Positions 2,160 through 63,617 of a stretch of 64,000 nt of DNA are shown here, piece by piece. The position numbers and the translations under genes were made by a program. A model generated the notes under the pieces. That model saw only the letters and a program-made list of their open reading frames with translations, was not told where the DNA came from and searched no databases. Within the stretch, counting starts at the first letter, position 1; each line of letters opens with the position of its first letter. Source of the DNA: an uncultured Candidatus Saccharibacteria bacterium. GTDB taxonomy: Bacteria; Patescibacteriota; Minisyncoccia; UBA6257; 2-01-FULL-56-20. The stretch is taken from NCBI GenBank assembly GCA_964365185.1, contig CAYIOP010000003.1:40828-104827 (forward strand), in the 5' to 3' direction.

Positions 2160-3875
2160 TTACTCCCTAATCACCCTCAAGACCTCGTCAATCGTCGTCA
2201 TGGCAAGCTCCACTTTCATTAACCCGTCCTCAAACATCGTTCTCATCCCGTTTTCTCGCGCCGTCATCATCAATTTCTCCAAAGTAAAATCCTTGCTAAT
2301 AATTACTTTTTTAATTTTCTCATTCACATCTAAGTATTCAAAAATTCCCAACCGGCCTCGATAACCAGTTGTCCCGCAATTCGAACAACCCTTACCTCTG
2401 TAAAAATTTTTAGGCAATTTAACTTGGTTAGGATCCAAAGCCAATTCCGTAAGCTGATTCCGAATCACATCTTTTACTTCCGGCTCAATTTCATAAGAAG
2501 AAATACAGGTCTGGCAAATTCTCCTCACTAATCTCTGAGCAATAATCAAATTCAAAACCGAAACCACTAAAAAAGGCGGCACTTTTAAATCAAAAAGTCG
2601 GGGTATCACTGTCGGCGAATCATTAGTATGCACCGAAGACAAAAGCAAATGCCCGGTTAAAGCCGCCTGAACCGAAATTCCGGCTGTCTCCGCGTCTCGA
2701 ATCTCACCCACCATAATAATATTCGGGTCTTGCCTTAAAATCGCTCTAAGTCCCGAAGAAAAAGTAATACCAGCTTGAGTGTTAATCTGAGTTTGGTTAA
2801 CGTAGCGCATATTATATTCCACCGGATCCTCAACTGTAACAATATTGACTTGTGGCCGGTTTAAAATATCCATCAAAGCGTAAAGCGTCGTTGTTTTACC
2901 TGATCCAGTTGGTCCACAAATCAAGACCATGCCGTAGGCCGTCTTAAGATTTTCCCTCATCAACTTCACATCGTCCGCTAACACCCCTAATTCTTCCAAA
3001 GAAAGCGGCTTTTGAGCCGCCTCAAGTAACCGCATCACCACCTTCTCGCCGTAAAAAGTCGGTAAAATCGAAACCCTAACATCAATCACTTGATTAACAA
3101 TCTGATAATGAAAACGTCCGTCTTGAGGCTTAAAATGCTCGTCGATTTTAAGACCAGAGAGAATCTTAATTCTAGCCACGAGCGCCGAATGAATCGCTTT
3201 GGGCATCCTCATAATTTCAAAAAGAATGCCGTCAACTCGATAACGAACCAAAGTCACATCTTCTAAAACTTCAAGATGAATATCCGACGCTCTTGAAGAC
3301 ATGGCGTATGACAAAAGATTCTCCACAATTGAGACAATCGGCAAAAGCGAAGCTGCCTCCTCAATTGTTTTGGCTTCCCCTCGAAGCGACTCCTGAATAT
3401 TTTTTTCAATCAGCTGCTTAAAATCTTGAGATGATTGCAACCCATAAATGGCAAAGCCCCGATTCAAATCGCTATCCGTGGCCAAAAAAACATTAATCCT
3501 GGATTTAAGATGTTGCGATAAAAATTTAACCGTCTCCAAGTTACTCGGGTCAGTCATCGCCACATTAAAGCTTCCGTCTTTTTCTTTATTAAAAACGATC
3601 ACCTCTCTCCTCCTCGCAATGTCTTCAGGCAAAATCTTAACCACTTCCGGATCAACGTTTTTAGTGTCAAGCTTAGCCAATCCCACTCCCAAAATCGAAG
3701 CTAAAAGATTGCCCAAATAAGTCGCCTCAACTACACCCTGAGAAATTAATAAATCTAAAATGCCTTGATTTTTACGCTTAGCATCATCAACGATAGTTTG
3801 AAACCGTTCTGCAGTCACTAGTCCCTCTTGAACCAATTTATTTTTAAGTTGTTCCTCTGGAATCGGTAAATGCAT
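2160..3875 (-). CDS. pilB: type IV pilus assembly ATPase PilB (GspE family)
   Basis: Walker A motif GPTGSGKTTT, GspE signature regions, and a C-terminal Cys cluster (CQTC...CSNCGTTGYRGR). I moved the start to the ATG at 3875 (MHLPIPEEQ) to avoid the upstream overlap. Confidence 0.85.
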   Translation of the reverse strand: MHLPIPEEQLKNKLVQEGLVTAERFQTIVDDAKRKNQGILDLLISQGVVEATYLGNLLASILGVGLAKLDTKNVDPEVVKILPEDIARRREVIVFNKEKDGSFNVAMTDPSNLETVKFLSQHLKSRINVFLATDSDLNRGFAIYGLQSSQDFKQLIEKNIQESLRGEAKTIEEAASLLPIVSIVENLLSYAMSSRASDIHLEVLEDVTLVRYRVDGILFEIMRMPKAIHSALVARIKILSGLKIDEHFKPQDGRFHYQIVNQVIDVRVSILPTFYGEKVVMRLLEAAQKPLSLEELGVLADDVKLMRENLKTAYGMVLICGPTGSGKTTTLYALMDILNRPQVNIVTVEDPVEYNMRYVNQTQINTQAGITFSSGLRAILRQDPNIIMVGEIRDAETAGISVQAALTGHLLLSSVHTNDSPTVIPRLFDLKVPPFLVVSVLNLIIAQRLVRRICQTCISSYEIEPEVKDVIRNQLTELALDPNQVKLPKNFYRGKGCSNCGTTGYRGRLGIFEYLDVNEKIKKVIISKDFTLEKLMMTARENGMRTMFEDGLMKVELAMTTIDEVLRVIRE

Positions 3876-51653: not shown

Positions 51654-51710
51654 CCCTTCTTATTTCCTTTATAATTTTTTTCTAATTTTATTGATTGAAA
51701 ATTGTTAATT

Positions 51711-51772
51711 GTCCTCCAAAAGAGGATCTCCTCCGAGGGAGGATCGGCCTTCGGGGGACGCCTCCGGCGGAG
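51711..51772. repeat. GC-rich hairpin-cluster repeat (copy 1)
   Basis: GTCCTCCAAAAGAGGATCTCCTCCGAGGGAGGATCGGCCTTCGGGGGACGCCTCCGGCGGAG, about 97% identical to 55500-55561, with diverged similarity extending for ~200 nt. Confidence 0.7.
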
Positions 51773-51899
51773 TAATTAATAATTTCTATTATATCTCTAC
51801 CGTATCTCTAATATGTCTCTTCTTGCATTCATACTTTTAGTTTTTCACTTTTCACTTTACGCCTCCTATTCCCTATCACCCATAACCTATCACCTAATT

Positions 51900-55286: not shown

Positions 55287-55499
55287 GAATCAATATTTCA
55301 ATCTATTTTAGCACAAAAAAGCCGCCCTGAAAAGACCAAATTAAAATAATTAACCTAATCTCAATAGTATTCCAATCGTATCTCAATTATTTTTCTCTTA
55401 TATCTCTACTGTATTTAAATCGTATTTTTTGATAATTAGTAATTAATTATTAATTGAAAATTGCTTGCCCGCCGTAATCTTGATGAAGGCGGAGCAATT

Positions 55500-55561
55500 G
55501 TCCTCCGAAAGAGGATCTCCTCCGAGGGAGGATCGGCCTTCGGGGGACGCCTCCGGCGGAA
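55500..55561. repeat. GC-rich hairpin-cluster repeat (copy 2)
   Basis: Near-identical to 51711-51772 and preceded by an extra hairpin GCCCGCCG…CGGCGGAGC. Confidence 0.7.
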
Positions 55562-55819
55562 TAATTGATAATTTCCATTGTATTTCCACTGTATCTCTAT
55601 TGCATTTCAATTTCTTAATATTCTTGATAATTTCTAGCTTTTATTTTATTGATAATTGGTCATTGAAAATTGATAATTTCTATCGTATTTCTTCTTAATC
55701 TAAACTTTTAGCTTTTCGCTTTGCGCCTTACATTCTCTATCATCTATCACCTAAAACCTAACGCCCGTCTCTTTTATTTGACGAAAATCTTGCCCTCCCC
55801 TATAATCATTGAACTAAAT

Positions 55820-60535: not shown

Positions 60536-61801
60536 CTAATAATTTAGTGGGAATTTTAGGCATAATTCTTTTGCTTTTTGTAAAACCTCTTTCCCATCCA
60601 CCAATACTTCTTTTATCATTCGCGCCACCTCTTTCATCTCTGCCTCTTTCATTCCTCGCGTAGTTAAAGCCGGCGTACCCATTCGAATTCCCGACGGGTC
60701 CATCGGACTTCGCGAATCATAAGGAATCGTATTTTTATTCACAATGATTCCGTTTTTCTCCAATTTATCGCTCGCTTCTTTCCCACCGATTCCATGATTA
60801 GTTAAATCCACCAAAAGCAAATGCGTGTCTGTCCCGCCCGCCACAATTCTAAAACCATAATTTTTAAGTTCCTCCGCCAATGTTTGGGCATTCAAAACAA
60901 TCTGGCTTGCGTATTCCTTAAAATCCAGCTGCACCGCTTCTTCCATCGCCACCGCAATTGCCGCAATCTGATTCGCATGCGGCCCACCCTGCAACCCCGG
61001 AAATATCGCTTTATCAATCGCCTTAACAATATCCACGCCCGCGCGATTTGCGATTTGCGATTTGCGATTTGCGAAAATCACCCCCGCCCTCGGTCCCCTA
61101 AGTGTCTTATGAGCTGTTGCCATCACTACATCCGCATATTTAAACGGAGTCGGATAAACTCCTCCTGCAATGAGTCCCGCAAAATGCGACATATCTACCA
61201 TTAAATATGCGCCCACCTCATCACAAATCTCCCGAAACTTTTTAAAATCCACGATTCGCGGGTAGGCCGTGTATCCGGCCACAATAATTTTCGGTTTATG
61301 TTCTTTGACCAACTCACGAATCGCATCATAATCCAAAAGTTCTGTTTCTTTGTTTAAAGTGTATGACACCGACTTCCACGCCTTAGAAGTAAAACTCACC
61401 TTGTGTCCGTGCGTTAAATGCCCGCCCATATCAAGCTGTAGTCCCATAATCGTCTCGCCCAAAGACACGAGCGCCACGTAAATCGCCAAGTTCGCCGGTG
61501 ACCCCGAGTATGGCTGGACATTCACTCCCCATTCATCAGAAGATAAACCAAATGCCTTAAGCGACCGCTCTTTTGCTAAATTTTCAAGCTGGTCCACAAA
61601 TTCATTCCCGCCATAATATCTCATCGCCGAATACCCTTCGGCATATTTATTGGTAAAAACCGACCCCAAGGCCTCTAAAACATCCCGCGAAACAAAATTC
61701 TCTGACGGTATAAGATTGATCGTCTCATTCTGCCGCCTCGTTTCCTTTTTAATTAATTCCTCAACAATTTTGTCGTTCATTAAAACATTTCCAACATTCA
61801 A
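60536..61801 (-). CDS. glyA: serine hydroxymethyltransferase
   Basis: PLP-lysine region TAHKTLRGPRAG and overall SHMT collinearity. An in-frame (GATTTGC)x4 insert at 61045-61072 encodes …ANRKSQIANR…. Confidence 0.9.
   Translation of the reverse strand: MNVGNVLMNDKIVEELIKKETRRQNETINLIPSENFVSRDVLEALGSVFTNKYAEGYSAMRYYGGNEFVDQLENLAKERSLKAFGLSSDEWGVNVQPYSGSPANLAIYVALVSLGETIMGLQLDMGGHLTHGHKVSFTSKAWKSVSYTLNKETELLDYDAIRELVKEHKPKIIVAGYTAYPRIVDFKKFREICDEVGAYLMVDMSHFAGLIAGGVYPTPFKYADVVMATAHKTLRGPRAGVIFANRKSQIANRAGVDIVKAIDKAIFPGLQGGPHANQIAAIAVAMEEAVQLDFKEYASQIVLNAQTLAEELKNYGFRIVAGGTDTHLLLVDLTNHGIGGKEASDKLEKNGIIVNKNTIPYDSRSPMDPSGIRMGTPALTTRGMKEAEMKEVARMIKEVLVDGKEVLQKAKELCLKFPLNY
61045..61072. repeat. tandem heptamer (GATTTGC)x4 inside glyA
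   Basis: Four perfect units; the same motif occurs in folD (59077-59097). Confidence 0.8.
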
Positions 61802-61846
61802 TCACTCCGACCATTAACTTATTTTATCTCACATTCCATCGAAAAT

Positions 61847-62194
61847 TTATTTCTCATTTAACTTATCAAAAATACCCTGAATTAAAGGTTTCAAGGGTGG
61901 AATTTCCTCAGAAGCCACCTTCCAGACGATTTCCTCATCAACGCCAAAGTATTCGTGAACTAGCTTATTTCTCATGCCAGCAATATTCCTCCAAGGAATG
62001 TTGCTGTAGCTATTTTTGATATCGTCGGGAATTTTTGTAGCCGCCTCGCCGATAATTTCCAAACTTCTCACAACGGCATTGATAGTTTTCTTGTCTTTTT
62101 CAAAATTCTTAAAGTTTATTCCTTCAATAAAATCAGCTATGTCGCGAATGGAATCCAAAATGTCCTGAATATAATCGAGGTAATCTCTTTTCAT
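61847..62194 (-). CDS. hepT: HepT-family (DUF86) toxin, nucleotidyltransferase-substrate-binding/HEPN-like
   Basis: C-terminal Rx4HxY motif (RNKLVHEY), ~115 aa, start overlapping the upstream MNT gene by 4 nt. Confidence 0.7.
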   Translation of the reverse strand: MKRDYLDYIQDILDSIRDIADFIEGINFKNFEKDKKTINAVVRSLEIIGEAATKIPDDIKNSYSNIPWRNIAGMRNKLVHEYFGVDEEIVWKVASEEIPPLKPLIQGIFDKLNEK

Positions 62195-62526
62195 ACCTTA
62201 ACCAAATCCTGAAGTATCCGTTTCCCGATTCTGGGCTTAAGAGCTCTTCTAGTAACTAAATCAACTTTTGTTCCCAGCAAATCAGATAAATATCTCTCAA
62301 GTTCAATAAATTTTAACAAGCCGATCGATTCTTTAAAATCCACTAGAATATCAACGTCGCTTTTCCGACTTTGCTTATTCCTCGCATAAGAACCAAAAAC
62401 CGCTAACTCTCCGATTACCACACCAAATCTTCTTTCTACCTCCTTTTTATTTTGAGATAAAATATTTTTAATTTCTTCTAAATTTTTCATCACTTTTATA
62501 TTAATATCAACTGACTCAAAAATCAA
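62191..62526 (-). CDS. mntA: MNT-family nucleotidyltransferase antitoxin
   Basis: FGSYARNKQSRKSDVDILVDF is a minimal nucleotidyltransferase GS…DxD motif; classic HepT/MNT pairing. Confidence 0.7.
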   Translation of the reverse strand: MIFESVDINIKVMKNLEEIKNILSQNKKEVERRFGVVIGELAVFGSYARNKQSRKSDVDILVDFKESIGLLKFIELERYLSDLLGTKVDLVTRRALKPRIGKRILQDLVKV

Positions 62527-62912
62527 TCACCGTCTCATTCTGCCGCCTCGTCTCCGCCTTAATTAAATTTTCTACTTCTTTGTCTCTTATTAAAATATAA
62601 TACCCACAAAAAAGATATTCGCCAAGTAATCCCAATGCCTAGATAAAGCTTGCAAAAAATATAACACTTAAAATTCCCAAAAGTTTACAACAATCAAAAC
62701 TCGCCCTATACTTAACCTCGATGATTCTCTCCGATAAAGACATTAAAAAAGCGATTAAGGATGGTTTAATCGTCATTGACCCCCTCTTCCCGAAAGCCAT
62801 AGCCACCGTGTATCGCATGATTTCGAAATTATTATAACAAATAAAATTTATAAAAAAGGACCCTTGGTTTGCTTATGCAAACCAAGGGTCAAAGTGTCCA
62901 AGGGACTCAGAG

Positions 62913-63617
62913 TCAGACTTGCGCCGGAGCCGGAGTTTCCGAGGATTCGAGAACAGAATTGCGAGAGAACACCCGGCCACCACCGCTCCACCAGCCCGGA
63001 CCCTCGACAGAACTAGCATCAACGAGCCAGCCGTCACCGCCCCAGGACACGCCGACCGCACGAAGCGCACCGTTTTGGTCCTTGATGTAGAAGATGTTGG
63101 CGTAGCCGTTGGTCAAAAGAACGCCAGCTTCACCGTTAGCTTGCTTTTCCATCAAGGAAAACATTTCGGTGAGGATAGTTTCAGATTTTTCTTCTCCGCC
63201 CAGCTCGGCGATAATCGGACCATCGATCGAGGCCTGCTTCAGTGTGTGATAACGCAGAACCTGTTCGGCAATCCGGTCTTCGATTTTTCCGTCTCCCTTC
63301 AGGAACCAGTCAGTGAAGTTGTCGCCAAGATAGCTGATCTTAACCTTGGCTTTTCGACCAGTGTCACGAACAAACTTCTCTTTGGCGACAAATTTCGAAA
63401 TCGTGGGCGGTACGACGATAGTCGAGACGAGCTCGAGAATAGAGAGCTTTAGTTCCGTAACTTCTGCCCCACGATTTTGAACCGCAGTCACAAAAAGATT
63501 AATCGCTGCCACTGTGTTTTGGATAACCCATTGGGCGTCATCCGTAGGAAGTGGTCCAAACGCCGCCTGATGCTCAACTAGAGCTCCGGCAAGTTTCGGG
63601 ATCTGTTGTTCGGTCAT
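62913..63617 (-). CDS. hypothetical protein encoded in a GC-rich (~55%) segment, likely horizontally acquired
   Basis: 234-aa ORF in a region whose base composition differs sharply from the rest of the window (~35% GC); there are Gly/Trp-rich motifs near the C-terminus. I regard the overlapping antisense ORFs as composition artefacts. Confidence 0.45.
   Translation of the reverse strand: MTEQQIPKLAGALVEHQAAFGPLPTDDAQWVIQNTVAAINLFVTAVQNRGAEVTELKLSILELVSTIVVPPTISKFVAKEKFVRDTGRKAKVKISYLGDNFTDWFLKGDGKIEDRIAEQVLRYHTLKQASIDGPIIAELGGEEKSETILTEMFSLMEKQANGEAGVLLTNGYANIFYIKDQNGALRAVGVSWGGDGWLVDASSVEGPGWWSGGGRVFSRNSVLESSETPAPAQV

Follow-up and report, generated by a model that had tools for sequence, protein, structure and literature searches.

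The window analysed here is a stretch of 64,000 nucleotides from an uncultured Candidatus Saccharibacteria bacterium (contig CAYIOP010000003.1, positions 40,828 to 104,827), in which an MNT/HepT toxin-antitoxin (TA) pair lies between two copies of the start of glyA, the gene for serine hydroxymethyltransferase. Our analysis confirmed that the duplication is real, as is the intact TA pair between the two copies. We propose, with a probability of roughly 0.6, that this cassette entered by homology-assisted recombination with a diverged glyA 5' arm, without a transposase or integrase. The features concerned, all on the minus strand, are:

60536 to 61780, minus strand: glyA (serine hydroxymethyltransferase), the working gene (PF00464, E 1e-164)
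61721 to 61788, minus strand: working copy of the duplicated segment, an 8-nt leader plus glyA codons 1-20
61721 to 61741, minus strand: 21-nt block of exact identity in the working copy (codons 14-20, TRRQNET), the proposed crossover point
61789 to 61846, minus strand: 58-nt spacer from the HepT stop to the duplicated glyA start
61847 to 62194, minus strand: HepT toxin (HEPN RNase), 115 aa (PF01934, E 2e-32)
62191 to 62490, minus strand: MNT antitoxin (nucleotidyltransferase), 99 aa from the ATG at 62490 (PF01909, E 4e-17; PF18765)
62491 to 62530, minus strand: left cassette end, a 40-nt leader beginning GTGATTGATTTTTG, between the fossil core and the MNT start
62531 to 62598, minus strand: upstream (fossil) copy of the glyA start, cut after codon 20, with ATG changed to ATA at 62590-62588

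A repeat search returned 61721-61788 and 62531-62598 as the sole ungapped 68-nt direct repeat, with 78% identity and a spacing of 810 nt; the one other long local direct repeat in the window is an unrelated 104-nt pair. With respect to the gene, the repeat begins 8 nt ahead of the start codon of glyA and extends through codon 20, matching the gene start both in frame and in order. It ends abruptly past codon 20, while upstream of -8 no likeness of the two copies exceeding that of shuffled sequence was found. The start was taken as the ATG at 61780, since relatives begin at an equivalent M[KN]DK; the other possible start is a TTG at 61801. Identity along the repeat is uneven: the arm (codons 1-13) agrees at 25/39 positions (64%) and the core (codons 14-20) at 21/21 (100%). 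This core is the exact 21-mer CGTCTCATTCTGCCGCCTCGT at the repeat end nearer to the glyA body, which occurs at only two sites in the window even when three mismatches are allowed, and 100 shuffles gave no 21-mer match with up to three mismatches. The duplicate of about 80% with an exact 21-mer that the first-pass annotation had described is thus found again with these values, and so is its glyA N-terminal peptide, the upstream copy translating to ...IRDKEVENLIKAETRRQNETVIDF* with its start codon changed to ATA. Three replicate metagenomes of one groundwater well (Hainich), assembled independently of each other, carry the identical sequence, so that the duplication is not an assembly artefact, and gene products of the locus are also present on a 115.6-kb contig of an NCBI metagenome-assembled genome (MAG).

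The upstream segment had been taken for a glyA start. It is one, but it merely forms one end of a 271-nt fossil (62531-62801) with sharp bounds, which contains the first 20 glyA codons, promoter-like sites pointing both ways and codons 1-27 of dcd. Besides the glyA start it comprises:

62597 to 62625, minus strand: promoter-like TTGGCG-17-TATTAT (consensus scan only), ending 6 nt before the fossil glyA start and now facing the TA pair
62684 to 62712, plus strand: promoter-like TTTACA-17-TATACT (consensus scan only), in front of the dcd stub
62721 to 62801, plus strand: dcd stub (dCTP deaminase of the 200-aa type, codons 1-27; TIGR02274, E 0.003), divergent from the fossil glyA start

The dcd stub starts 130 nt past the upstream glyA copy on the opposite strand and shows 81% amino acid identity to the dcd of a relative (locus L005). 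At the DNA level 58/81 positions are identical, and the mismatches are distributed over the codon positions as 4/3/16; immediately after nt 81 the similarity drops to 6/39, which marks the sharp end at 62801. As the mismatches fall mainly on third positions, the stub shows no sign of long neutral decay. The segment can be recognised as a piece of a divergent dcd/glyA promoter region from which both genes have been cut off with little decay, an arrangement which is intact in the relatives L005 and L016, where a 200-aa dcd is divergent from glyA at a distance of 44-70 nt.

An intact but different dcd-family gene (dcd', 225 aa) is located just past the window end (L081:3114-3791) and presumably covers the lost dcd function; it looks as if an analogue had displaced one dcd in place.

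Because the dcd stub is undecayed, it is unlikely that the 36% divergence of the glyA arm arose in place. If the fossil has not decayed, this divergence would predate the event, and the two copies would be alleles from two lineages. The upstream copy had been called decayed by the first-pass annotation, a description which should be dropped, because this copy resembles the glyA starts of relatives no less than the working copy and has kept its promoter-like site. In blastn searches the glyA starts of L001, L002 and L005 matched the fossil arm with 88% identity over 50-51 nt (E ~1e-8), whereas the working arm gave 86% over 36 nt to L002 only (E 0.02) and elsewhere the bare core. Over the 39-nt arm, the mean number of matches to the nine nearest relatives is 28.8 for the fossil and 26.1 for the working copy. 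Together this is modest evidence that the upstream copy would not be a decayed duplicate of the working one. In addition, glyA positions 45-62 form the first recurrent block of exact identity (at least 14 nt) with the nine relatives, and this block coincides with the 21-nt core, which is where a crossover between diverged sequences is expected to resolve.

MNT and HepT are the only genes between the repeats. MNT comes first and HepT second, both on the minus strand with a 4-nt overlap, and the Pfam matches to PF01934 and PF01909 bear out the HepT/MNT cassette of the first-pass annotation. The translation of HepT contains RNKLVH (Rx4H) followed by EY, and that of MNT contains GS-x10-DVD (GSYARNKQSRKSDVD). 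According to its motifs and gene order the pair is an intact MNT/HepT pair and a putative type VII TA system. Type VII systems (2020, PMC7641770) reportedly show the same arrangement of MNT first, overlapping the HEPN gene, with Rx4H and GSx10DxD, and likewise a tyrosine two residues past the motif histidine (HEY). Type VII systems are defined by a toxicity that can be rescued and by neutralisation of the toxin through AMPylation of a tyrosine, for which the tyrosine in HEY would be the putative site. Membership is here assigned from sequence only, and both proteins stay below the NCBIfam equivalog cut-offs (HepT_toxin, 44.9 bits; MntA, 45.9 bits; cut-off 60 in both cases).

At the left cassette edge, TTGATTTTTG is found about 30-35 nt before the MNT start in the window and in L090, L091 and L089 (aligned by eye), and we infer that it is the cassette's own -35 box. 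Its presence at the same distance from MNT in the closest cassettes places the left edge within 2-3 nt of the junction, which suggests that the mobile unit would essentially extend from the promoter to the HepT stop. Pfam families of integrases or transposases were absent from the called genes of the 13-kb locus L081, as was an integron integrase, and the repeat search gave no inverted repeat at the cassette ends. The closest homologues of the cassette are 71-74% identical and reside in other genomes of the candidate phyla radiation (CPR) in unrelated contexts, and the family reaches Bathyarchaeia at ~60%. A 14-nt motif, GTGATTGAWTKTTG, is found at the left edge of the cassette and recurs 11 nt ahead of the working repeat; with a rough chance of ~0.06 it was not used as evidence.

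No terminator-like site was predicted in the 58-nt spacer, and a weak terminator-like consensus match is located inside the HepT coding region (61875-61896). The -10-like hexamer ahead of the working glyA start is poor (GGAAAT, compared with TATTAT in the fossil). Given the lack of a predicted terminator in the spacer, glyA is probably read through from the cassette and co-transcribed behind the TA pair, which itself would sit behind the old glyA promoter; this transcription pattern is suggested by the anatomy. A cassette that is wedged between an essential gene and its promoter while the gene remains unbroken should be hard to lose.

The proposed course of events is as follows. The incoming DNA would have carried the TA operon, from its own promoter to the HepT stop plus the 58-nt tail, joined to a stub of a relative's diverged glyA start, which served as a homology arm. 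Entry could have been by a Campbell-type single crossover of a circle or by homology-facilitated illegitimate recombination (HFIR) of a linear piece. Strand exchange would have been resolved in the first perfect identity, the 21-mer at codons 14-20, so that the resident promoter and the ATG with its 20 codons were stranded upstream of the cassette while the imported start now heads the working glyA. Both routes would give the order observed, namely resident promoter and start, cassette, imported start and gene body, and the predicted empty site would consist of the fossil arm, the core and the glyA body (...AAGGCGGAGACGAGGCGGCAGAATGAGACGATCAATCTTATACC). We infer both the identity of the imported copy and a circular or linear intermediate. 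The mosaic, with an arm of 64% and a core of 100% identity, agrees with a crossover, and glyA is intact despite the cassette inside its start because the locus has two copies of its first 60 bases. The uptake of foreign DNA is plausible, since ComEC and type IV pili are commonly encoded in CPR genomes. The first-pass annotation had offered either an insertion with duplication or a recombination with a diverged glyA flank; both describe the locus, and the second fits best.

For comparison with other loci, metagenomes were scanned with a HepT alignment, which yielded 80 further loci; after removal of near-identical cassettes, 62 loci were testable. A direct repeat of at least 30 nt, shared by the 1 kb preceding MNT and the 1 kb following HepT, was found at 19/62 loci versus 3/62 position-shifted controls from the same loci (Fisher p 3e-4), and in none of 222 random windows in glyA loci. 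These repeats are 38-249 nt long, the copies are 73-99% identical (94-99% at several loci), and the right-hand copy often begins 0-30 nt past the HepT stop. For at least 11 of the 19, the repeated sequence is the end of a neighbouring gene, a leader or a terminator. Two of them repeat the window architecture at other housekeeping genes: in L100 (1592-2675) MNT/HepT is inserted behind the initial 121-134 nt of trmI, which are duplicated from the ATG with 92-94% identity, and in L105 (3103-3910) behind the initial 69 nt of recR, which are duplicated from the ATG with 97% identity, the HepT stop overlapping the recR ATG. The repeat is 40 nt of leader in L112, a terminator in L138 and the 3' end of a neighbouring gene in L097, L140 and L156.

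None of the closest cassettes is located at glyA; their targets are a histidine kinase 3' end and elsewhere. In L090, L091 and L087 this histidine kinase 3' end is present on both sides of the cassette as imperfect direct repeats, the second copy beginning at the HepT stop codon. The L087 repeat comprises 168 nt with 84% identity (1713-1880 versus 3344-3511), both copies being an open frame with mostly synonymous differences, and L090 contains blocks of 82-100% identity (17-325 versus 1075-1445). Over all coding repeats the differences between the copies fall on codon positions 1/2/3 as 20/19/49, which departs from an even spread with p 1e-5; L087 by itself gives 5/4/18. Such an excess at third positions would be expected if both copies had evolved as working genes in different lineages before they were joined. 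The second histidine kinase copy in L090 and L091 also carries a 31-nt hairpin insertion.

The best matches of glyA itself are from MAGs of Patescibacteria/Paceibacterota (CPR), with at most 77% identity in a species-level genome collection; among 5.8 billion proteins the best identity is 80%, and its own 90% cluster contains this genome alone. Comparisons were therefore possible only at genus or family distance, and no strain-level empty site was found. The nearest relatives are syntenic, with holA, rpsT and a DedA-type membrane gene, then glyA and folD. In L001-L004, L006, L084 and L086 a dcd' gene (226-aa dCTP-deaminase family) lies upstream in the same direction as glyA, with a gap of just 72-105 nt in L002 and L006. 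Elsewhere the space between dcd' and glyA holds a PDDEXK_3 gene (L084, L001), an AbiEii toxin (L085) or a Na/Ca exchanger (L086). In L007 the 200-aa dcd is parted from glyA by an unrelated open reading frame (ORF) and another MNT/HepT pair, the MNT of which is only 30% identical to that of the window, and there is no duplication at this site. With such varied inserts, the site in front of glyA is one at which accessory and defence genes have landed repeatedly. No duplications were found at the inserts other than HepT that precede glyA in L084 and L085.

The first-pass annotation had named, as grounds against its reading, a similarity confined to the 21-mer and relatives with the same arrangement but no glyA-like sequence upstream. 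The similarity extends beyond the 21-mer, a second glyA start was found in 0 of 83 relatives (all with a glyA of at most 80% identity), and none of the relatives checked has a copy of the window cassette upstream of glyA; cassette and duplication alike are thus peculiar to this lineage. As a separate observation, two non-homologous dcd arrangements alternate at the same locus and are interspersed among relatives of similar distance.

Several points weigh against an entry through a diverged glyA arm. Of the nine nearest relatives, five are closer to the fossil over the 39-nt arm, yet two are equally close to both copies and two are closer to the working copy, and an arm of only 39 nt is short. 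With the nearest glyA at 80%, a strain-level empty site or direct proof of the resident copy is beyond reach. The bases of the core are conserved in several relatives anyway (16/21), so that the perfect core is suggestive, not decisive. In the survey, some of the 19 repeats are hairpins or multi-copy elements instead of gene ends (L153/L154, L159, L161) and may be of the integron-cassette or a similar repeat-array kind. Part of the third-position excess can come from post-duplication change in the working copy alone. A model in which one copy decays while the other changes under constraint would, by a rough estimate, place 44% of the differences at third positions, and the 56% observed are moderately above this, at only about p 0.015. 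Finally, the closest relatives by several genes have the same-direction 226-aa dcd' and not the divergent dcd of the fossil, so that the fossil itself could be imported.

This last point leads to an account which we consider unlikely, although it would explain several of the observations. The dcd stub, the divergent promoters, the glyA stub, the TA pair and the spacer would have come as one piece from a donor with a divergent dcd and the cassette, and would have been joined illegitimately just before the resident glyA ATG, making the working start native and the fossil foreign. The gene order in the closest relatives, dcd' then glyA in the same direction, would agree with this, as would the stub being most like the dcd of L005 and the 82-85% identity of the fossil arm to L001, L002 and L005, which is above the identity of the working arm to anything; the similarity of the copies starting only at -8 of the ATG could then be a microhomology joint. 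However, two illegitimate joints and an earlier duplication in the donor would be required, and the donor copies should be near-identical, the working arm differing only if the joint fell exactly at the gene start. L100 and L105 give no hint of a foreign upstream copy, with no relatives there for comparison, and as dcd and dcd' are interspersed among relatives of similar distance, an ancestor with a divergent dcd is not implausible.

A duplication in place, by staggered breaks or template switching, would have generated copies that were identical at insertion and have diverged since. This architecture has been described for restriction-modification (R-M) systems with copies 93-100% alike (PMC2853133), and several of the surveyed TA loci have copies 94-99% alike. 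At glyA, however, the untranslated copy would have had to remain nearer to the relatives than the copy under selection, and the arm would have diverged by 36% while the 21-nt core, the promoter-like site and the dcd stub did not decay; in addition, the pooled third-position bias is above the prediction for decay of one copy. We therefore regard this explanation as quite improbable for the present locus.

The identical core beside a diverged arm that restores the gene is also the classic attL/attR pattern, and the locus could be the remnant of a site-specific integrative element at the glyA 5' end with a replacement start, whose integrase was later deleted to leave an att-flanked, cis-mobilisable leftover. 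Such an element appears very improbable, however, because the 13-kb locus L081 contains no integrase, only the TA operon is present between the repeats, and related cassettes occupy targets that are unrelated to each other (a histidine kinase 3' end, recR, trmI and terminators), their repeats measuring 38-249 nt, which argues against site specificity. Chance resemblance or an assembly chimera, for which nothing but the short repeat length speaks, is negligible in view of the shuffling result, the in-frame collinearity with the gene start and the three independent assemblies.

The comparison with such elements can be extended to prophages: e14 and phage 21 reportedly integrate at icd with a replacement gene end. 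Like the glyA locus they combine an identical core with a diverged arm and keep the gene intact by element-borne sequence. They do however need an integrase and reuse a single site, whereas no integrase is present at the glyA locus and related cassettes are found at many targets. Integron TA cassettes are akin to the window unit in being small promoter-to-stop cargo flanked by repeats in arrays. At glyA, the flanking repeat is coding sequence and not an attC-type imperfect palindrome, and there is no IntI integrase nearby.

The recombination that we propose has its counterpart in HFIR, which has been defined in naturally transformable bacteria (PMC3240628), and in Campbell integration. In both, one homologous anchor together with one illegitimate joint, or the crossover of a circle, inserts DNA beside the anchor, and the crossover takes place in a short block of perfect identity, as we suggest for glyA. 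In contrast to the glyA locus, these are laboratory phenomena (Acinetobacter, Streptococcus, Pseudomonas, E. coli).

The closest precedent in architecture is the insertion with long target duplication of R-M systems (Nobusato et al. 2000, Gene 259:99; Furuta, Abe and Kobayashi 2010, PMC2853133). There, repeats of 46-423 bp with copies of 93-100% identity were described in the absence of mobility genes and with an unknown mechanism, mostly in naturally competent species, at many targets and with variable repeat length (PMC2853133). As at the glyA locus, a small addictive unit without a mobility gene is flanked by direct repeats of more than 30 bp (here 68 nt). In the R-M cases the repeat corresponds to a single-copy target in a genome without the insert; here the 83 relatives with at most 80% identity have a single glyA start. 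The glyA locus differs in its TA cargo, in copies that are 78% alike instead of 93-100%, and in a repeat that begins at the start codon of the gene, so that the host gene is rebuilt. A literature search for TA modules with long target duplication returned the R-M papers only, with many subscription papers outside its reach.

It is tempting to extend the proposal beyond this locus. MNT/HepT cassettes, and perhaps TA pairs generally, might be mobile promoter-to-stop units which carry along the stub of a previous neighbour gene and use it as a homing arm, so that homeologous recombination at the first identity block inserts the cassette in an operon or at the end of a gene, with a long imperfect target duplication as the result and the host gene intact. 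This generalisation is the more novel and less secure part of our interpretation, and we put it forward tentatively, as less likely than not. If true, it would constitute a general route, free of mobility genes, by which addictive gene pairs spread in CPR and other prokaryotes; insertion with long target duplication, so far known for R-M systems, would then apply to TA systems too and gain a mechanism. The movement of TA pairs without mobility genes of their own is poorly understood, and the locus together with the survey supplies a countable signature, namely long imperfect duplications of adjacent gene ends at ~30% of the sampled MNT/HepT loci versus 0-5% of the controls.

The other side of the fossil is occupied by a fragment of a diversity-generating retroelement (DGR):

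62791 to 62801, no strand assigned: junction with an overlap of about 8-11 nt between the dcd and DGR-cassette homologies (minus strand: TATGGCTTTCG)
62802 to 63617, minus strand: truncated DGR cassette with target gene, hairpin and a conserved downstream stretch that continues to ~62791

The target gene is GC-rich, encodes 234 aa (62913-63617, minus strand) and is followed by a GC hairpin at 62859-62890. It belongs to a large, unannotated family with 836 matches, in which the C-terminal 35 residues contain scattered hypervariable columns. In L173 a homologue precedes a template repeat of 114 nt and a reverse transcriptase gene (RVT_1), and there all 15 of the 15 mismatches between variable and template repeat are at template adenines, while 22/32 mismatches of the window gene against the L173 template are at adenines. 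This focus on adenines, together with the template repeat and reverse transcriptase of L173, identifies the 234-aa gene as a DGR target. A template repeat or reverse transcriptase for it was found neither in the window nor in L081, the fragment is not flanked by direct repeats, a Foldseek search of the PDB with the 234-aa protein gave no similar fold, and the 234-aa ORF has no homology to a 196-aa ORF of L007. DNA homology to DGR cassettes continues through the stop codon and the hairpin to ~62791, about 120 nt past the stop, and we take 62791-62801 to be the microhomology joint of the dcd stub and the DGR fragment. With the TA cassette on one side and a truncated DGR cassette on the other, the divergent dcd/glyA promoter region appears to have been hit from both sides, and the stretch of gene stubs in the window would be the wreck of one divergent promoter region struck by two selfish cassettes.

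Some minor observations concern the neighbourhood. The unrelated direct repeat of 104 nt (51707-51810 and 55496-55599, 92% identical) is intergenic and brackets gyrA and two other genes. It has a GC-rich core with nested hairpins and no Rfam match at the gathering threshold, at which tRNAs alone were detected in the window, and is a candidate for a small RNA or a structured repeat element. A lone gene for a 49-aa MazE/AbrB-type antitoxin-like protein (PF04014; 59535-59684, minus strand) is located between a DUF6122 gene and folD; it has no adjoining toxin partner, is not found in the relatives compared and is uncalled in the sister assembly L082. Beyond the window end, 2.3 kb from the insert, a free-standing LAGLIDADG-type ORF with a GFIDGEG motif (L081:2459-2926) lies between the DedA-type gene and dcd' and is missing from all relatives compared. 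Within the glyA coding region, the heptamer GCGATTT occurs four times in tandem (61043-61070; protein ...ANRKSQIANR...). The peptide encoded by it is conserved in several relatives, and as the 7-nt unit is out of frame, slippage would break glyA.

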